64,000 bases of DNA from an uncultured Roseiarcus sp. (lineage in GTDB: Bacteria > Pseudomonadota > Alphaproteobacteria > Rhizobiales > Beijerinckiaceae): the NCBI GenBank assembly GCA_945957375.1, contig CAMFKX010000002.1, forward strand, positions 3,323 to 67,322. The letters are read 5' to 3'. Position numbers and translations under genes: made by a program. The notes below the pieces were generated by a model that had not been told where the DNA came from, did not search any database, and saw only the letters and a list, made by a program, of their open reading frames with translations. Below are positions 18,213 to 39,730 of this stretch, piece by piece (within the stretch, counting starts at the first letter, position 1; each line of letters starts with the position of its first letter).

Positions 18213-20030
18213 ATGTCGGCCAGCGAGCGCGCGTTCCCCCTGCCTTCCGAAATTCGCGACCTGCCCGGGACCGAGGGCTGGGAGCAGATGTATCCCTACT
18301 TCACCCGCTTCCGGCCCGAGGACGACAAGGTCTTCTGGTTCTACAACGCCATGCACTTTCCCGAGCCGATGCCGGCCTTCGACGTGCTGACGGCGGAAGT
18401 GCCCTATCAGGCGCTCGGCGCCTTCACGACCCGCGTGTTCTCGTTCCCGACCACGCTCGGCATCGACCACCGCATCGTCAACGGCCGCATCTACATCACC
18501 GCCTATCCGGTCACCGATCCGGAGGAGATCGGTCGCCGCCTCGCGGTGTTCCAGGAGCGCGCCGGCTACTATTTCCAGAACTGGGAGCGGCTCTACGGCG
18601 AATGGAAGGAGCGGATGCACGCCCTCATCCGCGACCTCCAGGCGATCCACGTCCCCGCGTTGCCCGAACTCGACGACATCGAAACCGTCACTTCGGCCAA
18701 GGGCATCGGCCAGAACCACTACGTGCGCGAGTCCTATCACCGGACGATCGAATCCTTCTCGAAGATGTGGCACCACCACTTCGAGTTCCTGATGCTGGGC
18801 TACGGCGCCTATCTCGTCTTCTTCGAATTCTGCAAGAAGGCGTTCCCCGAGATCTCCGACCAGACCGTCGCGCGCATGGTGGCGGGCATCGACGTCTTCA
18901 TGTTCCGCCCGGACGAGGAACTGAAGAAGCTCGCCAGACTCGCCGGCGAACTGAAGGTCGGCCACAAGTTCGGCGACGGCTCGGACCCGACCGAAATCAT
19001 CAGCGCGCTGGAGCAGATGGGCGAGCCGGGCAAAGCCTGGCTCGCGGCGCTCGAGGAGACGCGCGACCCGTGGTTCCTGATGTCGACCGGCGACGGCTTC
19101 TATCATCACCACCGCAGCTGGAACGACGACCTCTCGGTGCCGTTCTCCGCGATCGCGCGCTACATCACGATGATCGAGGCCGGCCAATCGATCGAGCGCC
19201 CGACCGCGGCGCTGAAAGCGGAGCGCGAACGGATCATCGCCGACTACCGCGCGTTGCTCGGAAGCGACGAGGAGCGCGGCGCCTTCGACCAGATGCTTGG
19301 CCTCTGCCACCTCGTGTTCCCCTTCGTCGAGGACCACAAGTTCTACTGCGAGCACTGGTTCACGACGCTGTGGTTCACGAAGCTGCGCGAGTTCGGCGCG
19401 CTGCTCGCCCGCTTCGGCGTGATCGCCGACGTCGAGGACTTCTTCCACCTTCACCACACCGAGGCGGACCTCGCCCTGCAGGAAGTGGCGCTCGCCTGGG
19501 CCTCGGGCGGCCCGCCCGCCGGGCGCGGCCACTGGAAGCCGATCCTCAAGGAGCGCAAGCGCATCTGGGAGAAGCTCAAGGACTGGTCGCCGCCGCCGGC
19601 GCTGGGGCCGATTCCCGAAAACATCGCCGACCCGGCGCTGCAGATGCTGTGGGGCATCACTTCGGAGACCCTCGCCTCGTGGGCGCGCAAGCCCAGCGTC
19701 GCCGACGCCAACGAACTGCATGGCTTTGCGGCCTCGCCGGGCGTCGCCGAGGGCGTCGCCCGGGTCTTGAAGAGCGCCAACGACATCGGGCAGATGCGCG
19801 ATGGCGAGATCCTCGTCTGCCCCGTCACCAACCCGTCCTGGGGCCCGGTATTCGGCAAGATCAAGGCGGCCGTGTCGGACATCGGCGGCACCATGTCGCA
19901 CGCGGCGATCGTGGCGCGCGAATACGGCATGCCCGCCGTCGTCGGCACCGGCGGCGCGACCAAGCGCATCACCACCGGCCAGCGGGTGCGCGTGGACGGC
20001 AACACCGGCGTCGTCACCATTCTCGGCTGA
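18213..20030 (+). CDS. Phenylphosphate-synthase subunit A-like PEP-utilising phosphotransferase (HpeH/AcvA/CreH-like aryl kinase subunit)
   Basis: N-terminus PGTEGWEQMYPY...FWFYNAMHFPEP and HHFEFLMLGYGAY resemble Thauera phenylphosphate synthase A as I recall it. C-terminal phospho-His swivel domain GGTMSHAAIVAREYGMPAVVG. No pyruvate-binding barrel. Confidence 0.85.
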   Translation: MSASERAFPLPSEIRDLPGTEGWEQMYPYFTRFRPEDDKVFWFYNAMHFPEPMPAFDVLTAEVPYQALGAFTTRVFSFPTTLGIDHRIVNGRIYITAYPVTDPEEIGRRLAVFQERAGYYFQNWERLYGEWKERMHALIRDLQAIHVPALPELDDIETVTSAKGIGQNHYVRESYHRTIESFSKMWHHHFEFLMLGYGAYLVFFEFCKKAFPEISDQTVARMVAGIDVFMFRPDEELKKLARLAGELKVGHKFGDGSDPTEIISALEQMGEPGKAWLAALEETRDPWFLMSTGDGFYHHHRSWNDDLSVPFSAIARYITMIEAGQSIERPTAALKAERERIIADYRALLGSDEERGAFDQMLGLCHLVFPFVEDHKFYCEHWFTTLWFTKLREFGALLARFGVIADVEDFFHLHHTEADLALQEVALAWASGGPPAGRGHWKPILKERKRIWEKLKDWSPPPALGPIPENIADPALQMLWGITSETLASWARKPSVADANELHGFAASPGVAEGVARVLKSANDIGQMRDGEILVCPVTNPSWGPVFGKIKAAVSDIGGTMSHAAIVAREYGMPAVVGTGGATKRITTGQRVRVDGNTGVVTILG

Positions 20031-20042
20031 CGGAGGCGATCC

Positions 20043-21107
20043 ATGGCCGCTTTCGCTTCGCCCTTCGCCGATCTGAGCGTCGTCGACCGTCCGACGGTCG
20101 GCGGCAAGGGCGCCTCGCTTGGGGAGATGACCCGGGCGGGCGTCCGCGTGCCGCCCGGCTTTGTCGTCACCACCGGCGCATTCGAGCGCTTCCTCGCTGG
20201 CGTCGACCCGGAGGGGCACATCCGGCGCTCGATCGAGGCGCTGCCGGCGGGCGACTTGATCGCCGTGTCGAAGGCGGCGGAGGCGGCGCGCGCGCGCATC
20301 GTCTCCGCGCCGATGCCGGCCGAGATCGGCGAGGCGATCGTCTCCGGTTACGCCGAACTCTGCGGCGCAGGCGGCGACCAGCCGGTCGCGGTGCGCTCGT
20401 CGGCGACCAGCGAGGATTCGAGCGAGGCGAGCTTCGCCGGCCTGCAGGAGACCTATCTCTGGATCGTCGGCGCCGATGCGGTGCTGCATGCGGTGCGCGA
20501 CTGCTGGGCGAGCCTCTACAGCGCCGAGTCGGTCAGCTACCGCCTGCGCTTCAAGCTGCCGGAAGAGGGGCTGGCGATGGGCGTCGTCATCCAGCGCATG
20601 GTCGATCCGCGCTGCTCGGGGGTGATGTTCACCCGCAGCCCGCTGACCGGCGACCGCTCGGTGATCGCGATTGAGTCGAGCTGGGGCCTCGGTTCGGCGG
20701 TGGTCAGCGGCGTCGTCACGCCGGACAAGTACGTGATCAACAAGGTCACCGGCGAAGTCGTCAAGCGCACCGTGTCGCACAAGACGGTCGCCCACGTGCC
20801 CGACGCCGCGGCTGGCGGAGTGCGCGAGATCGCGGTGCCGGACGACCGCCGCGACGCGCCGTGCCTGGACGATGCGCAAATCGCCGAGCTCGCGCGCATC
20901 GGCAAGTCGATCGAGGCGCATTACGGCTGTCCGCAGGACATCGAATGGGCTCTGGCGCCGGACGTCGACGGGACGGAGCGGCTGTTCCTGCTGCAGAGCC
21001 GGCCCGAAACGATCTGGGCCAACAAGGAGCGTCAGCCGGCGGCGGCGCCCAAGGCGACCGCCTTCGCCCACGTCTTCGACATGTTCGGAGGAAAGCCCAG
21101 GACATGA
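20043..21107 (+). CDS. PEP/pyruvate-binding (ATP-grasp) subunit of the aryl kinase (phenylphosphate synthase B / HpeI / AcvB-like)
   Basis: Motifs VGGKGASLGEM, VAVRSSATSEDS...SFAGLQET, SGVMFT and PQDIEW; stand-alone ATP-grasp module. Confidence 0.88.
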   Translation: MAAFASPFADLSVVDRPTVGGKGASLGEMTRAGVRVPPGFVVTTGAFERFLAGVDPEGHIRRSIEALPAGDLIAVSKAAEAARARIVSAPMPAEIGEAIVSGYAELCGAGGDQPVAVRSSATSEDSSEASFAGLQETYLWIVGADAVLHAVRDCWASLYSAESVSYRLRFKLPEEGLAMGVVIQRMVDPRCSGVMFTRSPLTGDRSVIAIESSWGLGSAVVSGVVTPDKYVINKVTGEVVKRTVSHKTVAHVPDAAAGGVREIAVPDDRRDAPCLDDAQIAELARIGKSIEAHYGCPQDIEWALAPDVDGTERLFLLQSRPETIWANKERQPAAAPKATAFAHVFDMFGGKPRT

Positions 21108-21583
21108 CGACGTTGACCCACGAGGACGTCGAGGAGATCGTCCGCATCCTCGACACGTCGCCCTACGCCGAGTTGACGTTGAAAACGGACACGTTCGAAC
21201 TGAGCCTGAGGCGCGGCGAGGGCGGCTGGACGCAGGAGCGCAAGACCCTTGCCCGCGCGCAGGTCGTCGGGGCGGCGGCGTCCGCCAAGGGAGAAGCCGA
21301 GACGCGGCCGGGCGCGGCCGAGCCCGAGGAGGACGGCGTCGTCGCCGTGCGCGCGCCGATGGTCGGGACCTTCTACCGCGCGCCGAAGCCGGGCGCGCCG
21401 CCCTTCGTCGAGGTCGGCGCTACCGTCGGCGAGCACGACGTCGTCGGCATCATCGAGACGATGAAGCTGATGAACTCGATCCCCGCCGGCGCCGCCGGCG
21501 TCGTGACCCAGATCTGCGTCGCCGACGGCGAACTCGTGCCGGCGGGCGCGACCCTGATGCGGCTGAGACAGGCCGCGCCATGA
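21104..21583 (+). CDS. Biotin carboxyl carrier protein (HpeC-like)
   Basis: Motifs APMVGTFYRAPKPGAPPFV and the biotinylation site ETMKLMN. ATG at 21104 overlaps the upstream stop. Confidence 0.92.
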   Translation: MTTLTHEDVEEIVRILDTSPYAELTLKTDTFELSLRRGEGGWTQERKTLARAQVVGAAASAKGEAETRPGAAEPEEDGVVAVRAPMVGTFYRAPKPGAPPFVEVGATVGEHDVVGIIETMKLMNSIPAGAAGVVTQICVADGELVPAGATLMRLRQAAP

Positions 21584-22938
21584 CCATCCGCCGCGTCCTG
21601 ATCGCCAATCGCGGCGAGATCGCCGCGCGCATCATCCGGACCTGTCGCGACCTCGGCATCGAGGCCGTGCTTGCAGCCTCCGACGCTGACCTCGACAGCG
21701 CCCCCGCCCGCCTCGCCGACCGGGTCGTGCGTATCGGCGGCCCGCGCTCGCTCGACAGCTACCTCAACGTCGATGCGGTCGTCAGCGCGGCGAGCGAGGC
21801 GAAGGCCGACGCGATTCATCCCGGCTACGGCTTCCTGAGCGAGAACGCCGCGCTCGCCCGCGCCGCGCGCGCGCGCGGCCTGATCTTCATCGGGCCGACC
21901 GAGGCCAATCTCGAAGCCGTCGGCGACAAGCTGCGCGCGCGCGAGCATGCGCTCGCGGCCGGCCTGCCGCTTGCGCCGGGCGGTTCGATCGCAACGTCCG
22001 AAGACGCCGCCGCGCTCGCCGATCGGATCGGCTGGCCAGTGCTGGTCAAGGCGGTCGGCGGCGGCGGCGGAAAGGGCCTCAAGCGCGTCGACGATCCGGC
22101 GAAACTCGCGGCGACCGTCGAACTCGCCACGGCCGAGGCGGGCGCCGCCTTCGGCGATGCGCGCGTCTATCTCGAATGCTTCGTCGCCTCCGGGCGTCAC
22201 GTCGAGGTGCAGGTCCTAGGCGACGGCGACGACGTCATCCACCTCGGCGACCGCGACTGCTCGGTGCAGCGACGCTATCAGAAGCTGGTCGAGGAGGCGC
22301 CTGCGCCCGACCTTCCCGATCGTCTGCGCGCAGACATGCGCGCAGCCGCCGTCCGCTTCGCGAGGCATCTGCGCTACGTCGGCGCGGGCACGGTGGAATT
22401 CCTCTACGATCGCGAGCGCGAGGCGTTCTACTTCCTCGAGATGAACGCGCGCATCCAGGTCGAGCATCCGGTGACCGAAGCCGTCACCGGCGTCGACCTG
22501 GTCGCCGAGCAGATCGCCATCGCCGAGGGGCGCAAGCTTCGCCTCGCGCAGGCCGACGTGCGCATCGCCGGGCATGCGATCGAGTGTCGGCTCAACGCCG
22601 AGGACTGGTTGCGCGACTTCGCCCCGTCGCCGGGCGCGGTCGCCTTCGCCCGCTTCCCCGCGGAGCCGGGCGTGCGGGTCGATACCCACATCGAACCGGG
22701 CGCGAGCGTGCCGCCCTTCTACGATTCCCTGCTCGCCAAGATCATCGTGCATGGCGAGACCCGCGCCGACGCGCTCGATCGCTGCCGCCGCGCCATGGCC
22801 CTCTGCGCCGTCACAGGCGTCGCGACCAACCGCGACATGCACCTCGCTCTGCTCGCCGATCCGGTATTCGCGGAGGGCGGAGTCGACACGGCGTTCTTCG
22901 CCCGGTTCCTCGGCGCGCGCGCGGGAGGCGCCGCATGA
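21580..22938 (+). CDS. Biotin carboxylase subunit (HpeB-like)
   Basis: Motifs LIANRGEIA, HPGYGFLSEN, GGGGKG, RDCSVQRRYQK, FLEMNARIQVEHPVTE and YDSLLAK. Confidence 0.95.
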   Translation: MTIRRVLIANRGEIAARIIRTCRDLGIEAVLAASDADLDSAPARLADRVVRIGGPRSLDSYLNVDAVVSAASEAKADAIHPGYGFLSENAALARAARARGLIFIGPTEANLEAVGDKLRAREHALAAGLPLAPGGSIATSEDAAALADRIGWPVLVKAVGGGGGKGLKRVDDPAKLAATVELATAEAGAAFGDARVYLECFVASGRHVEVQVLGDGDDVIHLGDRDCSVQRRYQKLVEEAPAPDLPDRLRADMRAAAVRFARHLRYVGAGTVEFLYDREREAFYFLEMNARIQVEHPVTEAVTGVDLVAEQIAIAEGRKLRLAQADVRIAGHAIECRLNAEDWLRDFAPSPGAVAFARFPAEPGVRVDTHIEPGASVPPFYDSLLAKIIVHGETRADALDRCRRAMALCAVTGVATNRDMHLALLADPVFAEGGVDTAFFARFLGARAGGAA

Positions 22939-24407
22939 CCCGCGTCCGTCTTGTCGACGTCTCGATCCGCGACGGCAACCAGAGCACCTGGGGCGCGACC
23001 GGTCTCAACACCCCACAGTGCCTCCAGATCGCGCCGGTGATGAACCGGGTCGGCTTCCACGCCATCGACTTCACCGCCTCGACCCACATGGGCGTTGCGG
23101 TCAAGTATTACCAGGAAGACCCGTGGGAGCGAATCCGGTTGATGCGCAGGCTCGTTCCCGACGCGCCGCTGCAGTTCATCGGCACCGGCTTCCGCTTCAT
23201 CTCGTGGGAGACGCTGGCGCCCGACGTGATGCGGCTCGTCTACCGCTGCCTCGTGCGCAACGGCATGTCGCGCTTCATCGTGCTCGATCCGATGCACGAC
23301 CTCGACGCGATGCTCGAGACGGCTAAGATCATCCGCGAGGAAGGCGGCGCGCACGTCGTCGGCGCCCTCACCTATACCCTGAGCGACGCCCACGACGACG
23401 CCTTCTACGCCGACCTTTCGGCGAAGCTCGCCGCCTCGCCCGACTTCACCCGCATCTACATCAAGGATCCGGCCGGGCTGCTCACCGCCGACCGCGCGAA
23501 GACGCTGATCCCGGCGATCCAGGCGGCGAAGGGGCGGCTGCCGCTGGAACTGCATTCGCACTGCACGATCGGCCTTGCGCCCTACGTCTACACGGTCGCG
23601 GCCGATCTCGGCATTGACGTGCTACATGTCGGGGTTGGGCCGCTCGGCGGCGGCACCTCGTTGCCCGGGGCGCTGCAGACCGTCGAGAACCTGCGCGAAC
23701 TCGGGCACGAGGTCGATGTCGACGACGACGCCCTCACGCGCATGAACGACTACCTCTGCGCGCTCGCCCGCGCCGAGGGGCTGCCGTTCGGCGGCCCGCG
23801 CGACTTCGACGCGCGTTTCTTTCATCATCAGGTCGCCGGCGGGGTGATGACCACGACCAAGCGGCAGCTCGAGGAGGTCAAGCTCGGCCACCTGATGCCC
23901 AGGGTGATGGAGGAGGTCGACCGGGTGCGCGCCGAACTCGGCTATCCGATCATGGTGACGCCCTTCCCGCAGATCGTCTGCACCCAGGCGATGTTCAACG
24001 TGACGTCGGGCGAGCGCTACGCCCAGACGCCCGATCAGGTGATCCGCTACGTGCTCGGCCGCTTCGGTCGTCCGGCGAGGCCGGTCGACCCGGAGGTGAT
24101 GGACCGCATCCTGTCGCGCCCGCGCGCCAGGGAGATCGCGGCCGAGCCGCCGCCGCCGCCGCTCGCCGAGTTGCGCAGGCGCTTCTCGCCAAACCTCTCG
24201 GACGAGGAGTTCCTGCTGCGCGCGACGCTTCCCGGCGATCAGGTCGACGCGATGGTCGCGGCCGGCCCTGCGCGGCGGCGCTACAATCCGGACGCGGCGC
24301 CGATCCTGAAGCTGCTGCGCGCCTGCGCCGCCCGGCCGGACGCGCCGGAAATTGCGGTCGACAAGCCGGGGTTCCGGCTGGAGTTGTCGCGCGCGGCGCC
24401 TTTGTAG
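22935..24407 (+). CDS. Carboxyltransferase subunit, OadA/PycB (HMGL-like) family (HpeA-like)
   Basis: Motifs DVSIRDGNQS, EDPWERIR, IYIKDPAG, LHSHCT and GYPIMVTPFPQIV. No fused biotinyl domain. Confidence 0.88.
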   Translation: MTRVRLVDVSIRDGNQSTWGATGLNTPQCLQIAPVMNRVGFHAIDFTASTHMGVAVKYYQEDPWERIRLMRRLVPDAPLQFIGTGFRFISWETLAPDVMRLVYRCLVRNGMSRFIVLDPMHDLDAMLETAKIIREEGGAHVVGALTYTLSDAHDDAFYADLSAKLAASPDFTRIYIKDPAGLLTADRAKTLIPAIQAAKGRLPLELHSHCTIGLAPYVYTVAADLGIDVLHVGVGPLGGGTSLPGALQTVENLRELGHEVDVDDDALTRMNDYLCALARAEGLPFGGPRDFDARFFHHQVAGGVMTTTKRQLEEVKLGHLMPRVMEEVDRVRAELGYPIMVTPFPQIVCTQAMFNVTSGERYAQTPDQVIRYVLGRFGRPARPVDPEVMDRILSRPRAREIAAEPPPPPLAELRRRFSPNLSDEEFLLRATLPGDQVDAMVAAGPARRRYNPDAAPILKLLRACAARPDAPEIAVDKPGFRLELSRAAPL

Positions 24408-24435
24408 GGCGCCGTCGCCGACGCCGCCCTACAAA
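24401..24435. repeat. REP-like hairpin with GTAG/CTAC ends, possible terminator
   Basis: TTTGTAGGGCG (24401-24411) pairs with CGCCCTACAAA (24425-24435) and contains the TAG stop of the carboxyltransferase gene. Confidence 0.6.
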
Positions 24436-24456
24436 GGGCGCCCGACGGATAGGCGT

Positions 24457-24471
24457 CTATCTTTCGATAGG
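24457..24471 (+). promoter_or_regulatory. Conserved activator box 2 (CTATC-N4-GATAG)
   Basis: CTATCTTTCGATAGG upstream of the ABC importer operon, with a -10-like CGTAAT at 24494. Confidence 0.7.
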
Positions 24472-24654: not shown

Positions 24655-25971
24655 GTGGATACTTTCGAGACAGTTTTGCGCGCCGGGCGTTTGAACCGCC
24701 GCGATCTCATCAAGGCCGCGGGCGGCATGGCGTTCGCCGCGCCCTTCGGCCTCGCCGCCCCGGCGCGCGCCGCCGACGCGACGCTCAAGGTCGGCTTCGT
24801 CAGCCCGCGCACCGGGCCGCTCGCGAGCTTCGGCGAGAGCGATCCCTTCATTCTCCAGCAGGTGCGCGCTGCGCTCGCCAAGGGCGTCGAGGTCGGCGGC
24901 AAGACCTATGGGATCGAGATTCTCGACCGCGACACCCAGTCTGACCCGGTGCGCGCCGGCCAGCTCGCCAAGGAGTTGATCAACAAGGACAAGGTCGACT
25001 TCATGCTGTCGACCTCGACGCCCGAGACGGTCAATCCGGTCGCCGACGCCTGCGAGGCGGCCGGAGTGCCGTCGCTCTCGACGATCATGCCGTGGGAGGC
25101 GTTCTACTTCGGCCGCGGCGCCAAGCCCGGCGAGCCGTCGCCGTTCAAGTGGAGCTTCCTGTTCAGCTTCGGCGTCAACGACTTCCTCAAGTGCTACGTG
25201 TCGCAGTGGAACGGCCCGGTGCAGACCAACAAGAAGGTCGGCGCGCTGCTGCCCAACGACGCCGACGGCAATGCGATCCGCGCGCACCTGATGCCGGCGC
25301 TCGCCAAGGCCGGCTTCACCATCGTCGATCCGGGCGGCTATGAGGACGGCACCACCGACTTCTCGGCCCAGATCGCCAAGTTCAAGTCGGAAGGCGTCGA
25401 GATCCTCGTCACCTTCCCGATCCCGCCGGACTTCGCCACCTTCTGGCGCCAGGCCGCCCAGCAGGGCCTGACCAAGCAGCTCAAGATCGTCCAGGTCGCC
25501 AAGACCGGCCTGTTCCCCTCGACCATCGAGGCGCTGGGCTCGCTTGGCCCCAACATCGCCTCGGCCTGCTACTGGCACAAGGACTTCCCCTACAAGTCCT
25601 CCGTCACCGGCATGTCCTCGAAGGACATCGCCGACTCCTACGAGAAGGCGACGGGCAAGCAGTGGAGCCAGCAGCTCGGCGCGACCCAATCGCTGTTCGA
25701 CGCCGGAGTCGCGGCGCTGAAGGCCTCTGGAGCGCCGACCGACAAAGCCGCGCTCGCCAAGGCGATCAGCACCCTGAAGGCGGACACGACCGTCGGCGCG
25801 ATCGACTTCGCCAAGGGGCCGGTGCCCGGCGTCGTCAACACGCCGATCATCGGAACGCAGTGGATCAAGGCGAAGCCGGGCTCGAAGTTCAAGCTGGACT
25901 ACGTGATCACCGAGAACGCCAACGACCCGAACGTGCCGGTCGGGGCCAAGCTCATTCCGTACAACGGCTGA
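24655..25971 (+). CDS. ABC transporter substrate-binding protein, LivJ/HAAT type, Tat-exported
   Basis: Twin-arginine signal LNRRDLIK, then KVGFVSPRTGPLASFG and DRDTQSDP. Confidence 0.88.
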   Translation: MDTFETVLRAGRLNRRDLIKAAGGMAFAAPFGLAAPARAADATLKVGFVSPRTGPLASFGESDPFILQQVRAALAKGVEVGGKTYGIEILDRDTQSDPVRAGQLAKELINKDKVDFMLSTSTPETVNPVADACEAAGVPSLSTIMPWEAFYFGRGAKPGEPSPFKWSFLFSFGVNDFLKCYVSQWNGPVQTNKKVGALLPNDADGNAIRAHLMPALAKAGFTIVDPGGYEDGTTDFSAQIAKFKSEGVEILVTFPIPPDFATFWRQAAQQGLTKQLKIVQVAKTGLFPSTIEALGSLGPNIASACYWHKDFPYKSSVTGMSSKDIADSYEKATGKQWSQQLGATQSLFDAGVAALKASGAPTDKAALAKAISTLKADTTVGAIDFAKGPVPGVVNTPIIGTQWIKAKPGSKFKLDYVITENANDPNVPVGAKLIPYNG

Positions 25972-29371: not shown

Positions 29372-29500
29372 CCGCCACCGCCAACCTGTCGCGAATCTTG
29401 GCCCCCTTCCACCACGCTTCGCCGCCCGTTGAGCGGCGGCCGGGGACATGGCGGGCGGCCTTTGGGAAACGCCAATGACCAAAATGCTGGAGGAACGCCC

Positions 29501-30620: not shown

Positions 30621-31427
30621 GTGAGCGAGATCGATCTTACCGGCAAGGTCGCCCTGATCAGCGGCGGCGCGCGCGGCATCGGCGCGGAGACCGCGCGCTG
30701 TTTCGCCGGACACGGCGCGGCGGTGGTGATCGGCGACGTGCTCGACGAAGCCGGCCGCGGGACCGCCGAGGCGATCCGCCACGCCGGCGGCAAGGCCGAT
30801 TTCATCCACCACGACGTGACGAACGAGTCCGAATGGGAGGCCGCGGTCGATCACGCGATCCGAACCTTCGGCGGCCTCGAGATCCTCGTCAACAACGCCG
30901 GCGTCGAGGAGGCCGAGCACCTGGTCGACCTCGACATCGCCCGCGCGCGCCGACTGATCGACGTCAACGTCAACGGCGTGCTGCTCGGTCACAAGCACGC
31001 GGCGCGCGCCATGCGCCCTGGCGGCCCGGCGGGGCGCGGCGGCTCGATCATCAACCTGTCGTCGGTCGCCGGCTTGATCGGCACGCCCGGGCTCGGCGCC
31101 TATACCGCTTCCAAGGGCGCCGTGCGGCTCCTCTCCAAGACGGCGGCGGTCGAGTTCGGCTTTCTCGGCTACGGCGTCCGGGTCAACTCGATCCATCCCG
31201 GCTACGTCGAGACCGACATGGGCCGCAAACTGATCGACCAGTTCGTCGGCTTCGGCATGCTGCCCAACAAACTGACGGCGCATGCCGACATGGCCAGAGC
31301 CTATCCCGTCGGCCGGACCGGCGTGCCGCTCGACATCGCCCGCGCGGCGCTGTTCCTCGCCTCCGACCTCTCGAGCTTCGTCACCGGCGCCGAGATCGTC
31401 GTCGACGGCGGCATGACCGTCGCATGA
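30621..31427 (+). CDS. Short-chain dehydrogenase/reductase
   Basis: Motifs SGGARGIG, NNAG, YTASKG and RVNSIHPG. Confidence 0.92.
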   Translation: MSEIDLTGKVALISGGARGIGAETARCFAGHGAAVVIGDVLDEAGRGTAEAIRHAGGKADFIHHDVTNESEWEAAVDHAIRTFGGLEILVNNAGVEEAEHLVDLDIARARRLIDVNVNGVLLGHKHAARAMRPGGPAGRGGSIINLSSVAGLIGTPGLGAYTASKGAVRLLSKTAAVEFGFLGYGVRVNSIHPGYVETDMGRKLIDQFVGFGMLPNKLTAHADMARAYPVGRTGVPLDIARAALFLASDLSSFVTGAEIVVDGGMTVA

Positions 31428-31488: not shown

Positions 31489-32733
31489 ATGACTGTCGCG
31501 CGCAAGGGCGTCGTCATCATCTGCAACCTCGATACCCGCGGCGAGGACATCGTCTTCGTGCGCGACCTCATCCGCGCCCGCGGCCACGACGCCATTCTGG
31601 TCGACTTCAGCATGGAGGAGGCGCCGGCCGTCGCCGGCGACGTCAGCTGCGACGAGGTCGCGGCGCGCGGCGGGCTCGGCATCGAGACGGTGCGCGCCTA
31701 TTACCGAACGAACCGCGAGGCCGCGACGAACAACCAGATCGCGGGCGTCAGCGCCATCGTCGAGGATCTCAGGAAGGCCGGGCGCGTCCATGGCGTGCTG
31801 GGCATCGGCGGCGCCACCTCGACCCTCGTCTCGACCGCGATCATGCAACGCCTACCGTTCGGCATGCCCAAGGTGATGGCGACGCCGATGGCCGGCCACC
31901 CGCGCTACGTCGAAAAGGCCGTCGGCACGCGCGACATCACGATGCACAACACCGTGCTCGACATCGTCAAGATGAACCCGCTGTTGCGCGCGCAGATCGT
32001 CAACGCCGTCGGCGCCGTCTGCGGCATGGTCGAGATGACCGAAGGGACGGATTTCCGCTTCGACAGGCCCGTCGTCGCCGTCTCGTCGTTCGGTTTCGCC
32101 GAGATGGCCGGGCAGGCCGCCGTCGGCTGTCTGGAAGAAGAGGGCTTCATCCCGGTCGTCTGCCACGCCCAGGGCAAGGGCGACCGCGCGATGGAGGAGA
32201 TGATCGCCGACGGCGTGTTCGCCGGCGTGCTCGACCTCTGCATCGGCGGGGTGCTCGAGCACCTTCAGGGCGGAAACCGCGATCCGGGGCCTGACCGTCT
32301 GAAGGCCGCCGCGGAGCGAGGCGTTCCCGCCGTGCTCGCGCCCTGCGGCCTCGATTTCCTGAGCTACGGCGGGAGGCCCGACAAGTTGAAAGAGACGGAG
32401 GGACGCGCCCGCTACGTGCAGGACTCCTTCCGCGTCCAGGTGCGCAGCACGGCGGATGAATTGCGAGAGGCGGCGGACGTGGTCGCGGCGCGGCTGAACG
32501 CGTCGAACGGCCCGTTCGTGGTCCTGAACCCTCTTCGCGGCTGGTCGTCGATCGACCGCGAGGGGCGGCCGCTGTGGGACCCCCAGGCCGACGCAGCGTT
32601 CTTCCAACGCCTCAGGGACAAGCTCGCGCGCAAGGAGGCGATCGTCGACGTCGACCTCAACCTCTACGACGCCGCTTTCGCCCGGGTCGCGGTGGATCAT
32701 CTCGCCCGATTGATGCGCGGGGCGACAGGATGA
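31489..32733 (+). CDS. Tm-1-like ATP-binding domain protein (UPF0261 family)
   Basis: Motifs NLDTRGED (family LDTKGEE), LPFGMPKVMAT, SSFG...CHAQGKGDRAME and VLAPCGLD. Confidence 0.75.
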   Translation: MTVARKGVVIICNLDTRGEDIVFVRDLIRARGHDAILVDFSMEEAPAVAGDVSCDEVAARGGLGIETVRAYYRTNREAATNNQIAGVSAIVEDLRKAGRVHGVLGIGGATSTLVSTAIMQRLPFGMPKVMATPMAGHPRYVEKAVGTRDITMHNTVLDIVKMNPLLRAQIVNAVGAVCGMVEMTEGTDFRFDRPVVAVSSFGFAEMAGQAAVGCLEEEGFIPVVCHAQGKGDRAMEEMIADGVFAGVLDLCIGGVLEHLQGGNRDPGPDRLKAAAERGVPAVLAPCGLDFLSYGGRPDKLKETEGRARYVQDSFRVQVRSTADELREAADVVAARLNASNGPFVVLNPLRGWSSIDREGRPLWDPQADAAFFQRLRDKLARKEAIVDVDLNLYDAAFARVAVDHLARLMRGATG

Positions 32734-35507
32734 CCTCGGCGGCGGTGTCGAGCGACGTCGGCGCTTACAGCGGCTGGAGCGAAGCCGACGTCGTCGTGCG
32801 GACGCGTCTGAGCCCGCCCACGCGCGCCGCCGGCGCCGTCTACCGGCATCGGCTCGATCACCATGACGAGGACTTCCGCCGCCGCGCCGTCACCCTCGTC
32901 AAGGCGCCGGCGGGCTACGGCAAGTCGAGCCTGCTCGCGCAATGGTTCGAGCAGCTGCGCCAGAGCGACGCCGCCGCCGGCTGGCTGAGCCTCGACCCGA
33001 CGCCGGACGACCTCATGGGCTTCGTGCGCCATCTCGTCGCCGCGCTGCAGCGCGCCCGCCCCGAGTTCGGGCGGAAGCTCGATCTCTTCTTCGGCGCGGC
33101 GGCCCGGCCCTCGGTCGCGGGCGTCACGACGACCCTCGCCAACACCCTGGCCGCGGTCGACGAGGACCTGTTCCTGTTCATCGACGACTTTCATCTTGCG
33201 ACCGACGCCGACGTCGCCGCCGCAATGCGGGCCCTGCTCGAGAGGCCGCCGGCGAACGTCCATTTCCTCCTGTCCTCGCGCCATTCGCTGCCGTTCTCCC
33301 TGTCGCGGCTGCGCGCCAAGGGCGCGGTCGCGGAGATCGACAGCCGCGAGCTGCGCTTCGACAACCAGGAGGCGGCCGAGTTCCTGCGCACCTCGGGCCA
33401 TGGCGCGCTGTCGCTCAAGGACATCGAGACGCTGGTGTCGCAGACGGAAGGCTGGCCCGCCGGCATCCAGCTCGCGGCGATCCTGCTCGCGCAGGACCGC
33501 GACCGCGCGACGCTGTTCTCGCTGCTCGCCGGACGCCACCGCCACCTGTGCGAATATCTCACCGACGACGTGATCGACCGTCTGCCGCCGGATACGGTCG
33601 AGTTCCTCGCCCAGACCTCGATCCTGTCGCGGCTGTGCGCCGACCTCTGCGACGCGGTCACCGGCGGCAGGGACGCGCGCCGGCGCATCGACGACCTCGA
33701 ACGCCAGAGTCTGTTCCTGTTCTCGCTCGACGGGGAGCGGCTCTGGTATCGCTACCACCACCTGTTCGCGAGCATTCTCCGGCGGCGGCTCGCCGAACAG
33801 GACCCGGCGATCGAACAGGCGCTGCACCGGCGGGCCTCCGACTGGTTCGGCCGCAACGGCCTGGTCGACGAGGCGTTCGGCCACGCGCTCGACGCGGGAG
33901 ACACGGCGCGCGCAGCCGGGCTGCTCGACGAATGGTGCGACCGGCTGCTCTACAACGGCCGCCTGCCGACGGTCCTTCGCTGGGCCGACAGGCTGCCCGT
34001 CGAGGCGCTCCGGCCTTACCCGCGGGTGCGGCTGCAGGCGGCGTTCTCGCACATCCTCGAATGGCGCTTCGCGGCCGCGGCGCGGATCATCGCCGAGGTC
34101 GAGGCCGATCTGGCGCAGGGGCTCGCCCATTCCGGCGCGACCGGGCGCGCGGCCCTCGACGTCCGCCACATCGTCTCGCATCGCAAGCTGATGCTGTTTC
34201 ACTTCCAGGACGACACGCCGAACACGGAACGCATCATCCACGAGATGATCAGCGACTTCCCGGACATCGACCCCTACCTCCGGGGCAATCTCGAGACCTG
34301 CCTCATCTACGCGCGGCGCGAGAAATACCGGTTGAACAACGTCGAGCGCATGGACGTCAACGCGCGCGACTACTACGAGAAGGCCGGCAGCCTGTTCGTC
34401 GCGGTGTGGCACGAGGCGGTGCTCGGGCCGACCTACTACCTCAGCGGCGACACGCCGATGGCGGTGCGCTCGCTGGAGACCTCGATGCACACCGCCGCGC
34501 GCATCGACGGCGAGGTGTCGTCGCTCGTCGCCATGCCGGCGCTCCTGCTCGCCGATATCCTCACCGAGCGCAACGAGTGCGAGCGCGCGGCCGAGCTGAT
34601 CCGGATCTATGGGCCGGAGGGCGAGAAGCAGGGCTTCGTCGATCACCTCATCGCCTTCTTCGTCACCCGGGTCCGGCTCGCGCAGCGGGCGGGCGACGCC
34701 GAGGCGGCGAACGCGGCGATCCGCGAAGGCGGCCTTTCGGCGACGCGCCACGGCTTCGCGCGCCTCGAGAACCACATGCTGCACGAAGAGATGCGCCGCG
34801 CCGTCGCCGATGGCGATCCCGCGTCCGTCAGGCGACTCGAGGCCGCCCTCGCGGAGCGCCGGATCGAGCCGGCGTTGAACCCGGGCCCGCACACGACGAC
34901 GCGCGACGAGCCGCTGGCGATGGCCCATTGCCGCGCCCAGACGGCGCTCGGCGGGCTCTCCGAGGCGACGCGCGTCGCGCGCCGCTGGATCGCCTTCGCC
35001 AACGGCCGCGGCGCGCTGAAGACGGAAGTGCGAATGCTGGTCCTGCTCGCGGTCGCGCTGGCGCAGGACGGGCGCGAGGGCGAAGCCATGCGCTCGCTGC
35101 GCGAAGCGGTGAAGAAGGCCGCGCGGCCGCGCTTCATCCGCAGCTTCCTCGACGAGGGGCCCGTCGTCGACCAGCTGTTGCGCAGCCTTTTCGCCGGCGC
35201 GGACGCTGAACTCGGGCCGACGACGGCCTTTGGGCTCGAGCTGATCCGCGCCTTCGCCGAGGAAGGCGGCGAGCCGGCGAGCGCGCCGGCGTCCGACGCC
35301 GACGCCGGGCTGCCCGAGCCGCTGAACCTGCGCGAGTCGGAGGTCATCAAGCTCGTGTCGATGGGGCTCTCCAACCGCGAGATCGGCGCCCGGCTCGGCA
35401 TGACCGAGGGTTCGGTGAAATGGTACCTGCAAGGGGTCTTCGCCAAGCTCAACGTGCGCCGCCGCTCGATGGCGGTGTTGAAGGCGCGCAAGTTCGGGCT
35501 GGCGTAG
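32730..35507 (+). CDS. MalT-like large ATP-binding LuxR-family transcriptional activator
   Basis: Walker A APAGYGKSS, WLSLD, FIDDFH, TEGWPAG, WYRYHHLF and a C-terminal LuxR HTH (LNLRESEVIKLVSMGLSNREIG...VKWYLQGVFAKLNV). Confidence 0.92.
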   Translation: MTSAAVSSDVGAYSGWSEADVVVRTRLSPPTRAAGAVYRHRLDHHDEDFRRRAVTLVKAPAGYGKSSLLAQWFEQLRQSDAAAGWLSLDPTPDDLMGFVRHLVAALQRARPEFGRKLDLFFGAAARPSVAGVTTTLANTLAAVDEDLFLFIDDFHLATDADVAAAMRALLERPPANVHFLLSSRHSLPFSLSRLRAKGAVAEIDSRELRFDNQEAAEFLRTSGHGALSLKDIETLVSQTEGWPAGIQLAAILLAQDRDRATLFSLLAGRHRHLCEYLTDDVIDRLPPDTVEFLAQTSILSRLCADLCDAVTGGRDARRRIDDLERQSLFLFSLDGERLWYRYHHLFASILRRRLAEQDPAIEQALHRRASDWFGRNGLVDEAFGHALDAGDTARAAGLLDEWCDRLLYNGRLPTVLRWADRLPVEALRPYPRVRLQAAFSHILEWRFAAAARIIAEVEADLAQGLAHSGATGRAALDVRHIVSHRKLMLFHFQDDTPNTERIIHEMISDFPDIDPYLRGNLETCLIYARREKYRLNNVERMDVNARDYYEKAGSLFVAVWHEAVLGPTYYLSGDTPMAVRSLETSMHTAARIDGEVSSLVAMPALLLADILTERNECERAAELIRIYGPEGEKQGFVDHLIAFFVTRVRLAQRAGDAEAANAAIREGGLSATRHGFARLENHMLHEEMRRAVADGDPASVRRLEAALAERRIEPALNPGPHTTTRDEPLAMAHCRAQTALGGLSEATRVARRWIAFANGRGALKTEVRMLVLLAVALAQDGREGEAMRSLREAVKKAARPRFIRSFLDEGPVVDQLLRSLFAGADAELGPTTAFGLELIRAFAEEGGEPASAPASDADAGLPEPLNLRESEVIKLVSMGLSNREIGARLGMTEGSVKWYLQGVFAKLNVRRRSMAVLKARKFGLA

Positions 35508-35601: not shown

Positions 35602-35616
35602 CAACCTTTCGATAGG
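35602..35616 (+). promoter_or_regulatory. Conserved activator box 3 (variant)
   Basis: CAACCTTTCGATAGG matches boxes 1 and 2 at 13/15 positions; a -10-like TAGGAT lies at 35638. Confidence 0.55.
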
Positions 35617-35758
35617 GGACCGACGTCCGGCGATCGTTAGGATGGAGGGAATACAGGATCGCGCCGCGCTCGCTGCGCGCGAAGCGAGGCAATCCACGGG
35701 CGCAGGAGGCCGCGGCTTCGTCCCGGCGCGCCTGGCAAAGACGGGAGAAACGCGGCCG

Positions 35759-37762
35759 ATGGTCGAGCAAAGCGAACTGCTCTGGACGCCGAGCCCCGAC
35801 TGGATCGCGAAGACCGAACTCGCCCGCTTCATGGCCTTCCTGCGCGACACGCGCGGGCTGGGCTTCACCGACTACGCCGGCCTGTGGCGCTGGTCGGTCG
35901 ACGACCTCGAGGGGTTCTGGGGTGCGGACTTCTTCGCCATCAAGGCGTCCGAGCCTTATACGCGCGTGCTCGCCTCGTCCGGGATGCCGGGCGCCCGGTG
36001 GTTTCCGGGCGCGCGACTGAACTACGCCGAACATGTGCTCAGGCGCGAGCGCCCGGGGGCGGACGCGCTGATCGCGGTCTCGGAGGATTCGCCGCCGGCC
36101 GGCGTGCCCTGGCCGGAGTTCGCCGCGAAGGTGCGCCTCGTCGCGACGCAGCTTCGCGCGCTCGGCGTCGAACCCGGCGACCGCGTCGCCTCCTACGCCC
36201 CGAACATCCCCGAGACCATGATCATGATGCTGGCCGCGACCGCGGTCGGGGCGATCTGGGCGAGCTGTTCGCCGGATTTCGGCGCCAAGGGCGTGCTCGA
36301 CCGGCTCGCGCAGCTGAAGCCGAAGATCCTGTTCTGCGTCGATGGCTATCGCTACGGCGGCAAGGCGTTCGACCGACGGGCGGAGCTTCGCGGCGTCGTC
36401 GCCGGCCTTGAAGGCCTCGACCGGGTGGTGACGCTGAAGCGGCTCGACCCCGACGCGCCCTTCGACCTCGGCGTCGCCGCGACCCGCTTCGAGGATCTGC
36501 TGGATCATCCGCCTGTGGCGGCCGAAGACTTCGCCTTCGAGCAGGTCGCCTTCGATCATCCGCTCTGGGTGCTGTTCTCCTCCGGCACGACCGGGCTGCC
36601 GAAGGCGATCGTCCACGGCCACGGCGGCATCCTGCTCGAGACCATGAAGACGCTCGCCTTCCACATGGACGTCCATGCCGGCGAGCGCGCCTTCTTCTAC
36701 ACCACGACCGGCTGGATGATGTGGAACGTGGTCGCGAGCATGCTGGCGGTCGGCGCCTGCCCGGTGCTGTACGACGGCAACCCGGCGTATCCGTCGATCG
36801 ACGCGCTGTGGCGCATGGCGGACGAATGCGGCGTCGCCTTCTTCGGCGCGAGCCCGAGCTATGTCGACATCATGCGCAAGGCCGACGTCGTGCCGAAGGA
36901 GCGCTTCGCGCTGAAGGCGCTGCGCGCCATCATGCCGGCGGGCTCGCCGGTCTCGGCCGAATGCACGGGATGGTTCTACGCCAACGTCAAGTCCGACCTC
37001 TGGATCGCCACCGGCAGCGGCGGCACCGACGTCTGCTCCGGCCTCGTCGGCGGCGTGCCGATCCTGCCGGTGCGCGCCGGCGAGATCCAGGCGCGCCAGC
37101 TCGGCGCGGCGATCGAGGCCTACGACGAGGACGGCGTCGCGGTGATCGGCGAGGTCGGCGAACTGGTCGTGACCAAGCCGCTGCCCTCGATGCCGCTCGG
37201 CTTCTGGGGCGACGAGACCGGCGCGCGCTATCGCGAGGCCTATTTCGACGTCTACCCCGGCGTCTGGCGCCACGGCGACCTCCTGCGCATCAACGAACGC
37301 GGCGGCTGCTTCGTGCTCGGCCGGTCCGACGCCACTCTCAATCGCCATGGGATCCGGATCGGCACGGCGGAAATCTATCGCACGCTCGACCACATGCCGG
37401 CGATCGCCGACGCGCTGATCATCAATCTCGACCTCGCCGACGGCGGCTTCTTCATGCCGCTGTTCGTCAAGCTCAAGCCCGGCTTCGCCCTCGACGCCGC
37501 GCTGAAGGCGGAGATCGCCGAGACGCTGAAGCGCGCCTATACGCCGCGCCACATCCCCGACGCGATCGTCGCGGTCAGGGACATCCCCTACACGCTGACC
37601 GGCAAGAAGATGGAAGTGCCGGTCCGGCGCATCCTGATGGGGACGTCTCCCGAGGCGGTTCTGAACCGCAACGCCATGTCGGACCCGCACGCGCTCGACG
37701 AATACGTCGCCTACGCCGCGGGCCGGCGCAATCGGCAACACGAGCAGGAAGCACGGGCATGA
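35759..37762 (+). CDS. Acetoacetate-CoA ligase family acyl-CoA synthetase (HpeE/AcsA-like beta-keto acid CoA ligase)
   Basis: Motifs WFPGARLNYAE, SCSPDFG, FSSGTTGLPK, YTTTGWMMWN, SGGTD, WRHGD and GRSDATLN. Confidence 0.9.
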   Translation: MVEQSELLWTPSPDWIAKTELARFMAFLRDTRGLGFTDYAGLWRWSVDDLEGFWGADFFAIKASEPYTRVLASSGMPGARWFPGARLNYAEHVLRRERPGADALIAVSEDSPPAGVPWPEFAAKVRLVATQLRALGVEPGDRVASYAPNIPETMIMMLAATAVGAIWASCSPDFGAKGVLDRLAQLKPKILFCVDGYRYGGKAFDRRAELRGVVAGLEGLDRVVTLKRLDPDAPFDLGVAATRFEDLLDHPPVAAEDFAFEQVAFDHPLWVLFSSGTTGLPKAIVHGHGGILLETMKTLAFHMDVHAGERAFFYTTTGWMMWNVVASMLAVGACPVLYDGNPAYPSIDALWRMADECGVAFFGASPSYVDIMRKADVVPKERFALKALRAIMPAGSPVSAECTGWFYANVKSDLWIATGSGGTDVCSGLVGGVPILPVRAGEIQARQLGAAIEAYDEDGVAVIGEVGELVVTKPLPSMPLGFWGDETGARYREAYFDVYPGVWRHGDLLRINERGGCFVLGRSDATLNRHGIRIGTAEIYRTLDHMPAIADALIINLDLADGGFFMPLFVKLKPGFALDAALKAEIAETLKRAYTPRHIPDAIVAVRDIPYTLTGKKMEVPVRRILMGTSPEAVLNRNAMSDPHALDEYVAYAAGRRNRQHEQEARA

Positions 37763-38535
37763 GCGCGCACGACATCTTCGACGTCCGGGGCAGGGCCGCC
37801 TTCGTGACCGGCGCCGCCGGCGGCCTAGGCCGCGCCATGGCGGAAGCGATGGCGGAGGGCGGCGCGAAGGTCGCGGCGTTCGACATCGACGCAGCCGGCC
37901 TCGCCGAGACGGCCGCCGCCCTGCGCGGCCTCGGCGCCGAGGCGATCACCTTCATCGGCGACGTCGCCGACGAGACGGCCGTCGAGGCGGCGGTCGCGGC
38001 GACGATCGACGCCTTCGGGAGTCTCGACATCCTGTTCGCCAACGCCGGCGTCGGCGATCCGGAGCCGGCCCTGCTGCACGAATATTCGACCGCGAACTGG
38101 AACCGCGTCGTGGCGATCAACCTTCAGGGCGTGTTTTACGCCGCTCGCGCCGCGCTGCGTCAGATGGTGAAGCAGGGTCACGGCAAGGTCATCGCCACCG
38201 CCTCGATGTGGGGCCTCGCCGGCTCCTCGAGCGTCTTCCCGCTGCCGGCCTACAACGCGACCAAGGGCGCGGTGGTCAACCTGACGCGCGAACTCGCCCT
38301 GCAATACGCCGAGCGCAACATCCAGGTGAACGCGATCTGCCCCGGCTTCTTCCGCACCAGGCTCGGCCCCTACGACGATCCGGAATTCGTCGCCGCGATC
38401 ACCGCCTTCACGCCGATGAAGCGGATCGCCGAGCCCGAGGAGATCAAGGGGACCGCGCTCTATCTCGCCTCGTCCGCGTCCGACTTCGTCACCGGCCTCG
38501 CTCTCGTCATCGACGGCGGCTGCATGGCGAAATGA
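37759..38535 (+). CDS. Short-chain dehydrogenase/reductase
   Basis: Motifs TGAAGGLG, ANAG, YNATKG and VNAICPG. Confidence 0.92.
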   Translation: MSAHDIFDVRGRAAFVTGAAGGLGRAMAEAMAEGGAKVAAFDIDAAGLAETAAALRGLGAEAITFIGDVADETAVEAAVAATIDAFGSLDILFANAGVGDPEPALLHEYSTANWNRVVAINLQGVFYAARAALRQMVKQGHGKVIATASMWGLAGSSSVFPLPAYNATKGAVVNLTRELALQYAERNIQVNAICPGFFRTRLGPYDDPEFVAAITAFTPMKRIAEPEEIKGTALYLASSASDFVTGLALVIDGGCMAK

Positions 38536-38694
38536 TCGCGAGGTTGAGCCGGGGCGGCGCGACCGCGCCCGCGCGGCGAAAAACCCGGGCGCGGAATCAA
38601 CCTTTTCAAGGCGTTGCGCCGGGATTCCCGGGCGAATCGCAACTCGCCGCGACGCGACAGTCGGGCAAATTGCGGACCTCCTGCCGCACGCCGC

Positions 38695-38892
38695 CCTCAT
38701 CCTGAGCTTGTCGAAGGATGATCCAGTGGCTTCGACCGTCGGCGCAACTTGGAGCGTCCTCGACAAGCTCAGGACGAGGACGGCGGCAGGGGCGGCTCGG
38801 CATGCTGGGCGCGGCATGCCGGACGCGGACCTCATCCTGAGCCTGTCGAAGGATGATCCAGGGGGCTCGACCGTCGCCGCCATCAGGACGAG
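38695..38892. repeat. Intergenic inverted/direct repeat element (CCTCATCCTGAGCTTGTCGAAGGA family)
   Basis: A copy at 38695-38726, an inverted copy at 38756-38779 forming a hairpin, and a direct copy from 38830 followed by a degenerate right arm. Confidence 0.7.
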
Positions 38893-39073
38893 ATTCGGGG
38901 ACCCTTCCCGGGTTACGGGCGGAGTCGTCGCCTGCGGATTCGGATGTCAAACAGCGGCGCGGGACGCGCAGGGGCGGCGTTTCCACAATCCCGCGATCCT
39001 AGCGATGATTTCCGTTTTTCGCAATGAATTGCCAGCCGTTCAGCCGGGCGGTCCGCGCCCTCGCCCGGCCGCT

Positions 39074-39730
39074 TCACAGCGCGAGGCGCCGCTCGGCTTC
39101 GGCGAAAGAATGGGCCGGTCTCGTGACGTCGAACCAGACCGCGTCGAGCCCGGCCGCGCGCGCGCCCTCGACGTTGCGCATCTGGTCGTCGACGAAGACG
39201 ACCCGCTCCGGCTCGGCGTTGAGCGCCGCGCAGCCGAGCGCATAGGCCCGCGGATCGGGCTTGAGGATCTTGGTGTGCGTGGCGTCGACCAGACAGTCCG
39301 TCAGGCGCAGGATGTTCAGCGCCTCCATCTCCTCCCGGCCATGGAAGAGTTCGAGCTCGTTCGACAGGATCCCGACCTTGCGCCCCGCGCGCTTCGCCCG
39401 CTCGACCGTCGCCAGCGCCTCCTTGCGGACGTGGGCGTTCGGGTCGTCGCCCGCGGCGCGGCGGGTCAGCGTCAGCATCGTCCAATCCTCGCCGACCATT
39501 CGTCCCACTTCGGCGGCGCGCTCGGCCCAGTAGCCGCGTTCGGAAATCCTGCCCTCGATCATGTCGCGCCAGAGCGGGTCGCCGTCCGGATCGAACGGCC
39601 CGCGCCAGGTCAGCGCGCCCTCGGCGAGGCCGAGAAGCCTTTCCGTCTGCCGGTGGCGTTCGAAGAGGGTGATCGAGACGACGCCGCCGAAGTCGAGCAG
39701 CAGGGCCTTGGCGACGGACGAATCGGGCAA
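39074..39730 (-). CDS. HAD-superfamily hydrolase (candidate aryl-phosphate phosphatase, HpeD/AcvF/CreD-like role)
   Basis: Motif I LLLDFGGV, LSN, KPDPRAY and motif IV VFVDD. The specific role is inferred from context. Confidence 0.85.
   Translation of the reverse strand: MPDSSVAKALLLDFGGVVSITLFERHRQTERLLGLAEGALTWRGPFDPDGDPLWRDMIEGRISERGYWAERAAEVGRMVGEDWTMLTLTRRAAGDDPNAHVRKEALATVERAKRAGRKVGILSNELELFHGREEMEALNILRLTDCLVDATHTKILKPDPRAYALGCAALNAEPERVVFVDDQMRNVEGARAAGLDAVWFDVTRPAHSFAEAERRLAL

Follow-up and report, generated by a model that had tools for sequence, protein, structure and literature searches.

A predicted catabolic island for phenolic methyl ketones in an uncultured Roseiarcus bacterium

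A stretch of 64,000 nucleotides from the genome of an uncultured Roseiarcus species (contig CAMFKX010000002.1 of assembly GCA_945957375.1, positions 3,323–67,322; hereafter the window) encodes a two-component dikinase followed by a biotin-dependent carboxylase. We consider that the region from 18.1 to 38.5 kb, possibly reaching 41.7 kb, is probably (roughly 75%) an island of catabolic genes for phenolic methyl ketones of the 4-hydroxyacetophenone (HAP) or acetovanillone (AV) type, similar to the Hpe, Acv and Xcc systems. The Hpe/Acv pathway was first described in 2022 and is now being engineered for lignin valorisation. A preliminary description of this DNA had proposed a homologue of that phosphorylation–carboxylation pathway, and the proposal is supported by gene order, the match of one kinase subunit to HpeI, the kinase clade and the genomic contexts of the carboxyltransferase family. 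All pathway steps given below are assigned from homology and gene linkage.

Because the window is ~70% G+C, genes were called by third-position G+C frame analysis and then scanned against Pfam and NCBIfam. Every gene that the preliminary description listed was found at its coordinates by these means; the UPF0261 gene g13 and the MalT-type regulator with its regulon had been overlooked. Features lie on the + strand unless stated otherwise. The genes fall into three operons. Operon 1 (g1–g5, 18213–24407) has the order swivel-histidine subunit, ATP-grasp subunit, biotin carboxyl carrier protein (BCCP), biotin carboxylase (BC) and carboxyltransferase (CT), which the Pfam and NCBIfam domains bear out. 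A 12-nt gap separates g1 from g2, and the other three of its four junctions (g2/g3, g3/g4 and g4/g5) are 4-nt overlaps, in keeping with the earlier view that the genes are mostly translationally coupled. A hairpin over the g5 stop codon (24392..24448, −40.1 kcal/mol, z = −5.1) divides operon 1 from operon 2 (g6–g14), which encodes an ABC importer, a zinc-dependent alcohol dehydrogenase, a short-chain dehydrogenase/reductase (SDR), the UPF0261 protein and the MalT/LuxR regulator. Operon 3 comprises the ligase gene g15 and the SDR gene g16, which overlap by 4 nt.

The kinase subunits carry much of the assignment. The product of g1 (18213..20030, 605 aa) is an HpeH/AcvA-like dikinase alpha subunit with substrate-binding and swivel domains, the latter containing His563 in the sequence SDIGGTMSH. 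Its sole Pfam domain is the C-terminal swivel (PF00391, residues 529–599), and it scores 803 bits against NF006153 (cut-off 578). Similarity to phosphoenolpyruvate (PEP) synthase is confined to the 100-residue swivel domain, and the Pfam scan found no PEP/pyruvate-binding domain (PF02896). The swivel motif is of the form T/SxxGGxxxH with methionine at −2, the motif described for phenolic kinases (PMC12167813). The beta subunit, g2 (20043..21107), is a stand-alone PPDK_N ATP-grasp protein (PF01326, 5.9e-106) of the HpeI/AcvB type; its best PDB match is HpeI (9GOJ, 1e-83), and it falls below the PEP synthase family cut-off (339 versus 598). In a FastTree phylogeny of alpha subunits, with clades labelled from neighbouring genes and not from characterised reference sequences, a single branch (support 0.978) parts g1 and 44 biotin-linked sequences from 22 UbiD-linked ones. 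Clustering with genuine PEP synthase or pyruvate carboxylase, which the preliminary description had named as an outcome that would count against it, was not observed: g1 lies on the biotin-linked side, with 56–86% identity to kinases linked to biotin carboxylases versus 47–51% to UbiD-linked (Pps-type) kinases, and g2 is, among solved structures, nearest to HpeI. The genome has a second kinA/kinB pair on contig C38 (L002:3-2517; 44% and 39% identity), whose alpha subunit groups with the 22 UbiD-linked sequences. No carboxylase is visible beside that pair, which adjoins a 2959-aa open reading frame (ORF) on the opposite strand.

The carboxylase is encoded by g3 (21104..21583), a BCCP whose biotinyl domain has the biotinyl-lysine motif ETMKL; g4 (21580..22938), a BC identified by Pfam and NCBIfam that scores under the cut-offs for housekeeping AccC; and g5 (22935..24407), a CT of the XccA/AcvE/Hpe type with PYC_OADA/HMGL domains and the motifs RDGNQS, KDPAG and HSH. 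The g5 product falls under every cut-off for pyruvate carboxylase (PycB) and OadA (288 versus 402). An alignment search of species-representative genomes returned at least 589 relatives of the CT. Among the best 80 CT loci, the arrangement kinA-kinB-BCCP-BC-CT occurs in 48 and MarK-like UPF0261-BCCP-BC-CT in 20. A NagD-type HAD-IIA gene follows the CT gene in nearly all of these loci, and a g15-like ligase gene and an Amidohydro_2 gene recur in many. Kinase type changes at least five times over the CT tree, in which g5 is sister to a Roseiarcus metagenome-assembled genome (MAG) from a peat bog (support 100%). More distant relatives include an Aromatoleum xcc-like cluster (63% identity) and marK-type clusters of Novosphingobium (56–57%).

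Several related clusters depart from this build. In an acv-like cluster of another alphaproteobacterium (genome G122, locus L013), tblastn found no BC gene between the BCCP and CT genes. Contig C1 of the present genome (~36–49 kb; L001:1560-12358) carries a second dikinase and biotin carboxylase cluster. Its members are a small swivel ORF, two proteins of 519 and 200 aa without Pfam domains, AMP-ligases, a 699-aa protein in which PPDK_N and swivel are fused, BCCP, BC, a CT that shares only 35% identity with g5, and a thiolase; this cluster may activate a different ketone. What seems to be left of a further acv-like cluster lies as a mosaic on the 4354-bp contig C374 (L003), in the order internal MalT-like fragment, BCCP C terminus, BC N terminus fused to a CT C terminus, HAD-IIA gene and, at the contig end, the N terminus of a kinase alpha subunit. 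Either the cluster has decayed or the assembly is chimeric at this point.

A ligase gene is tied to the kinase–carboxylase operon by a shared upstream element. The preliminary description had noted an acetoacetate-CoA-ligase-like gene downstream, and g15 (35759..37762) indeed scores 897 bits against NF002937 (acetoacetate-CoA ligase, cut-off 639). The start is placed at 35759, not at 35420, because the longer ORF aligns with the family only from its residue 117 onward and one of the boxes described below would fall inside the supposed N terminus. The protein belongs to the acetoacetyl-CoA-synthetase family, is HpeE/AcsA-like and is predicted to be an aryl-β-ketopropionate-CoA ligase; its homologues, mostly 59–66% identical, adjoin kinase–carboxylase genes in more than 30 loci. 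Putative operator boxes of the form CTATC-N4-GATAG precede each operon. Box 1 (CTATCTTTCGATAGG, 18103..18117) is an exact palindrome ~100 bp upstream of g1, box 2 (24457..24471), upstream of the importer operon, is the identical 15-mer, and box 3 (CAACCTTTCGATAGG, 35602..35616), upstream of g15, has two mismatches. Four matches to the box at one mismatch or fewer were found versus 0.45 expected. A scan for the sigma-70 consensus near box 1 gave no match.

The boxes recur in relatives. Box 1 has counterparts upstream of g1 homologues in loci L021, L107 and L109; L021, L102 and L104 retain box 2, and so does L109, though on the minus strand, the importer operon of that locus and its box being inverted together; box 3 has positional counterparts in L021 and L104. 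In the Roseiarcus locus L021 the boxes thus occupy the same three intergenic positions, and three matches arose in 0 of 100 shuffles. This common box, conserved in relatives, is what connects g15 to operon 1. The regulator g14 (32730..35507, 925 aa) is a MalT-type protein with STAND ATPase, TPR and LuxR-HTH domains by Pfam. Its homologues in kin are 69–74% identical and conserved beside the box-bearing cluster, which makes g14 the likely activator at the three boxes.

Taken together, the genes suggest the following route. The ABC importer (g6–g10) would bring in the ketone or an alcohol precursor, and g11, g12 and g16 would oxidise alcohols of the 1-(4-hydroxyphenyl)ethanol type to the ketone. 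The g1/g2 dikinase is expected to transfer phosphate from ATP via His563 to the phenolic hydroxyl, after which g3/g4/g5 would carboxylate the aryl phosphate on the methyl of its acetyl group. Candidates for phosphate removal are the UPF0261 protein g13, phosphotransfer by the g1 subunit, and g17. The g15 product would then form the CoA thioester of the aryl-β-ketopropionate, and a CouO/HpeF-like amidohydrolase encoded on contig C113 may release 4-hydroxybenzoate and acetyl-CoA. The 4-hydroxybenzoate would pass through PobA to ring cleavage. Expression would be governed by g14, activating the three promoters through the CTATC-N4-GATAG box.

The later steps draw on genes elsewhere in the genome. 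CouO is a ketohydrolase of the amidohydrolase superfamily (PMC4737184), and the Amidohydro_2 gene on C113 adjoins ligase and enoyl-CoA hydratase genes. Its product is 80% identical to the hydrolase of L104 and 77% identical to one encoded directly after HAD-IIA in an Acidobacteriota cluster. We regard it as the candidate cleavage enzyme, a role assigned to it by family and by the company its homologues keep. The genome's PobA scores 697 bits (cut-off 539), with an intradiol dioxygenase gene adjacent, and LigB-type enzymes are also encoded.

Other readings of the same genes were weighed. The automatic names (PEP-utilising enzyme, pyruvate carboxylase subunit B, acetoacetate-CoA ligase) would suit a split PEP synthase with a subunit-type pyruvate carboxylase, or carboxylation of acetone to acetoacetate feeding an acetoacetate-CoA ligase, and g15 does lie above the acetoacetate-CoA ligase cut-offs. 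HpeE and AcsA of Aromatoleum EbN1, however, are members of the acetoacetyl-CoA-synthetase family as well. Since g1 matches PEP synthase only over the swivel and has no PEP/pyruvate-binding domain, since g2, g4 and g5 all fall under the PEP synthase, AccC and PycB/OadA cut-offs, and since the genome has other large PEP-utiliser ORFs (of 789 and 946 aa) outside the cluster, we judge such a role in central or acetone metabolism to be highly improbable. Activation of phenol in the manner of Pps, via phenylphosphate and ring carboxylation, would account for the membership of g1/g2 in the PpsAB superfamily and for the occurrence of g13-type UPF0261 proteins mostly in ppsAB-UbiD-CBS-UbiX clusters. 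Yet the Pfam scan found no UbiD, UbiX or CBS-domain gene in the cluster or the rest of the window, the genes coupled directly to the kinase are the biotin carboxylase set, and the position of g1 in the tree and its low identity to UbiD-linked kinases point away from that type, so that phenol carboxylation seems hardly credible here.

The same chemistry acting on another natural substrate, such as alkylphenol-derived propiophenones or a different Sphagnum-derived phenolic, is unlikely in our estimate. In its favor, the kinase and CT share only 56–71% identity with their counterparts in clusters beyond the close group of Roseiarcus-like kin, the cluster has an unusual accessory set (g13, g18 and the ABC importer) and HAD-IIA is missing; MarK-dependent growth on guaiacylpropanone shows that the family takes other ketones (PMC12624787). 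All characterised members nevertheless prefer HAP or AV (PMC12167813, PMC13101465), p-hydroxyacetophenone is a known phenolic of Sphagnum cell walls (PMC7010833), and the nearest relative is the peat-bog Roseiarcus MAG. We favor an island for ketones of the HAP/AV type.

Some observations weigh against this preferred assignment. No NagD-type HAD-IIA gene (PF13344) was found in the window, the only copies in the genome being on contigs C374 and C79, and the clusters of the close kin L021 and L104 lack HAD-IIA also. An HpeF/CouO-type cleavage gene is absent from the cluster, the candidate being unlinked. The source genome is a MAG of 470 contigs with 4.35% contamination, so parts supplied in trans could derive from another strain. 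Comparison of g6 with solved aromatic-binding periplasmic proteins gave no discrimination and no clue to the ligand. As Hped orthologues, g12 and g16 were rejected: the match to 4URE reached only 134–136 bits, no better than that of many SDRs. The characterised proteins compared by sequence were HpeI and MarK, through the PDB. The enzyme activities and the substrate are inferred from homology.

The phosphatase gap is unusual, as the NagD-type phosphatase gene acvF is essential in Sphingobium sp. SYK-6 and in N. aromaticivorans. The preliminary description had listed a hydrolase of the haloacid dehalogenase (HAD) superfamily, g17 (39074..39730, − strand). The gene is present, and its equivalence to AcvF/HpeD fails on family, strand and catalytic motif. 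In HAD phosphatases the second aspartate of motif I serves as the general acid/base. The g17 product is a HAD-IA protein with the motif I sequence DFGGV, which has no second aspartate, a feature shared by its L104 orthologue, and the gene converges on the cluster across a repeat-rich spacer of 540 bp; we rejected it as the AcvF equivalent and regard its membership of the pathway as doubtful. A role for g17 is a minor possibility because the L104 orthologue lies directly downstream of an HpeF/CouO-like amidohydrolase gene on the same strand. The spacer between g16 and g17 contains, by eye, two copies of a ~50-bp element, CTCATCCTGAGC-TGTCGAAGGATGATCCAG..., at 38690–38885.

The UPF0261 protein g13 (31489..32733) offers another perspective on phosphate handling. 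It matches the structure of MarK (9MPY, 7.7e-53), the UPF0261 aromatic kinase of N. aromaticivorans whose gene precedes acvCDEF (PMC12624787). Among 19 cluster-linked MarK-like proteins (52–100% mutual identity), K16, H219, H302 and H304 are kept and G195 is present in 17. By contrast, g13 and three genomic kin (73–95% mutual identity) share only ~28% identity with the MarK group and form a subfamily marked by DTRGED, with arginine at the K16 position, tyrosine at 302 and glutamine at 304; G195 and H219 are kept. On these grounds (the low identity and the changes at K16, H302 and H304) g13 was rejected as a MarK orthologue. The g13 type is accompanied by a MarK-like gene and HAD-IIA in two Geobacter loci (L036, L041) and L137.

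A metagenome scan returned 80 g13-type loci, and in five of them biotin carboxylase genes are close by. The gene immediately upstream is UbiD in 38 of the 46 cases that could be read, and the one immediately downstream encodes a CBS domain in 52 of 64. In L119 the Pfam order is ppsA', ppsB', UbiD, UPF0261, CBS, UbiX, and this locus and ~45 other metagenome loci (L112–L181) show a conserved arrangement, in the sequence ppsA-like, ppsB-like, UbiD, g13-type UPF0261, CBS, UbiX and DUF2390. UPF0261 thus appears to be a regular member of anaerobic phenol-type clusters; our literature search found no paper linking UPF0261 with phenylphosphate or with such clusters. The common denominator of the g13-type contexts is an aryl-phosphate intermediate. 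We tentatively suggest, as a possibility that we would not rate above doubtful, that the DTRGED subfamily is a conserved and hitherto unrecognised third component of aryl-phosphate pathways and that the Roseiarcus-like lineage has lost the NagD-type phosphatase, g13 there either dealing with the phosphate once the intermediate is carboxylated, for instance by passing it to ADP, or acting as an ADP-forming phenol kinase. The latter may be a cheaper route alongside the AMP-forming dikinase. Elsewhere in the genome, contig C34 (L004:7269-9479) encodes a 736-aa fusion of an ABC-transporter ATPase domain with a complete UPF0261 protein (N- and C-domains).

The importer and dehydrogenase genes, which the preliminary description had taken as extensions of the pathway, gain support in this role from other bacteria, in which the importer, the zinc-dependent alcohol dehydrogenase and g12 are again found beside this carboxylase. 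The periplasmic substrate-binding protein g6 (24655..25971; Peripla_BP_6, twin-arginine signal) has a 64% homologue after the carboxylase cluster in L077 and 80–85% homologues in close kin. The ABC ATPases g7 (25986–26723) and g8 (26720–27448), identified by Pfam, have counterparts in L077, L104 and L109, and are followed by the permeases g9 (27445–28341) and g10 (from 28304 or 28346 to 29371), also Pfam assignments; an Acetobacteraceae bog MAG has the importer after its carboxylase cluster. The class-III-like zinc-dependent alcohol dehydrogenase g11 (29429..30604; Pfam and NCBIfam) has a 56% homologue upstream of the kinase in the alphaproteobacterial locus L013, and homologues of 77–79% in L105 and L109. 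The SDR g12 (30621..31427; Pfam) may be a 1-(4-hydroxyphenyl)ethanol dehydrogenase; it shares 65% identity with an SDR that adjoins a VAO/PchF-family flavoprotein in the Aromatoleum xcc-like locus L025. The second SDR, g16 (37759..38535), has an 80% homologue in L104. In L021, the locus of the closest relative (a Roseiarcus MAG), an amidase gene (13330–14946) stands in place of the ABC ATPases, permeases, alcohol dehydrogenase and SDR, and the kinase is preceded by a divergent VAO/PCMH-family flavoprotein gene (3226–4851); within the lineage, then, the accessory gene set is fluid. Beyond g17 lie two further recurrent neighbours. One is g18 (39835–40842), resembling medium-chain dehydrogenase/reductase (MDR)/quinone oxidoreductases by Pfam, whose homologues adjoin many loci at 42–48% identity, in most cases as a divergent gene upstream of the cluster, and reach 71% in L025; the other is g19 (40929–41687), SDR-like by motif reading only.

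The cluster is sparsely distributed. Among 400 Alphaproteobacteria that were sampled, 6 have a homologue of g1, in every case with carboxylase genes behind it. Within the same family, 2 of 100 genomes have one, both of the 46–47% paralogue type, and two genomes of the same genus lack it. The nearest relatives are Roseiarcus MAGs and metagenome contigs (CT 82%, kinase 85–86%), the closest by CT search being the peat-bog (SPRUCE) Roseiarcus MAG, and all of the top 120 homologues share at least 69% identity. This patchy distribution fits horizontal acquisition. The cluster may take part in the turnover of peat phenolics, since its kin come from peat-bog assemblies and p-hydroxyacetophenone occurs in Sphagnum walls. 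It would represent a natural Hpe/Acv variant, otherwise complete and co-regulated, without a phosphatase that is essential in two model strains, and so prompts one to ask how the phosphate is taken off or recycled. The putative operator and MalT-type regulator form a candidate ketone-responsive switch, a dedicated ABC importer is on offer, and through the g13 subfamily UPF0261 proteins are connected with anaerobic phenol clusters.

The biochemistry of homologous systems is published (PMC9618137, bioRxiv 10.1101/2022.04.28.489975, PMC12167813, PMC13101465) and allows the cluster to be placed among them. The ppsABC-ppc system of anaerobic phenol degraders has a homologous two-component dikinase, and g13-type UPF0261 proteins occur mainly in such clusters; here, however, the kinase belongs to a different clade and the carboxylase is biotin-dependent and predicted to act on the side chain. 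The marK-acvCDEF cluster of N. aromaticivorans (PMC12624787; 9MPY) combines a UPF0261 protein with the same carboxylase family, and the phenol-site residues G195 and H219 are kept in g13, whereas g13 sits after the importer and dehydrogenase genes instead of before the BCCP gene and coexists with a two-component kinase. For the xccABC, acsA, SDR and pchF cluster of EbN1, the Aromatoleum locus L025 (from a MAG related to EbN1, not the characterised strain) serves as a stand-in. Identities to L025 are 63% for the CT, 69% for the BC, 64% for the ligase, 65% for g12 and 71% for the MDR g18, and in L025 and EbN1, as here, genes for alcohol dehydrogenases accompany those of the carboxylase; absent from this cluster are the MarK-like kinase, the HAD-IIA and the VAO/PchF-type flavoprotein of L025.

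The first five genes stand in the same order in acvABCDEF of Sphingobium sp. SYK-6, also an alphaproteobacterium (bioRxiv 10.1101/2022.04.28.489975). Compared by order and domains, the present cluster lacks acvF after the CT gene and has the ABC importer, the alcohol dehydrogenase and SDRs, and the UPF0261 gene in addition; its regulator is of the MalT/LuxR type, whereas AcvR of SYK-6 is of the AraC type, and its ligase is AcsA/HpeE-like where SYK-6 uses VceA. From hpeHICBADEF of Rhodococcus rhodochrous GD02 (PMC9618137, PMC12167813) the cluster differs in lacking hpeD, in having its hpeF-like gene on a different contig and in placing the ligase gene in an operon of its own with the same box. 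The kinase–carboxylase order with its 4-nt overlaps is the same in the two clusters, g2 has HpeI (9GOJ) as its nearest solved relative, g1 has the swivel histidine motif with methionine at −2, the ligase is HpeE-like and an HpeF/CouO-like amidohydrolase is encoded in the genome.

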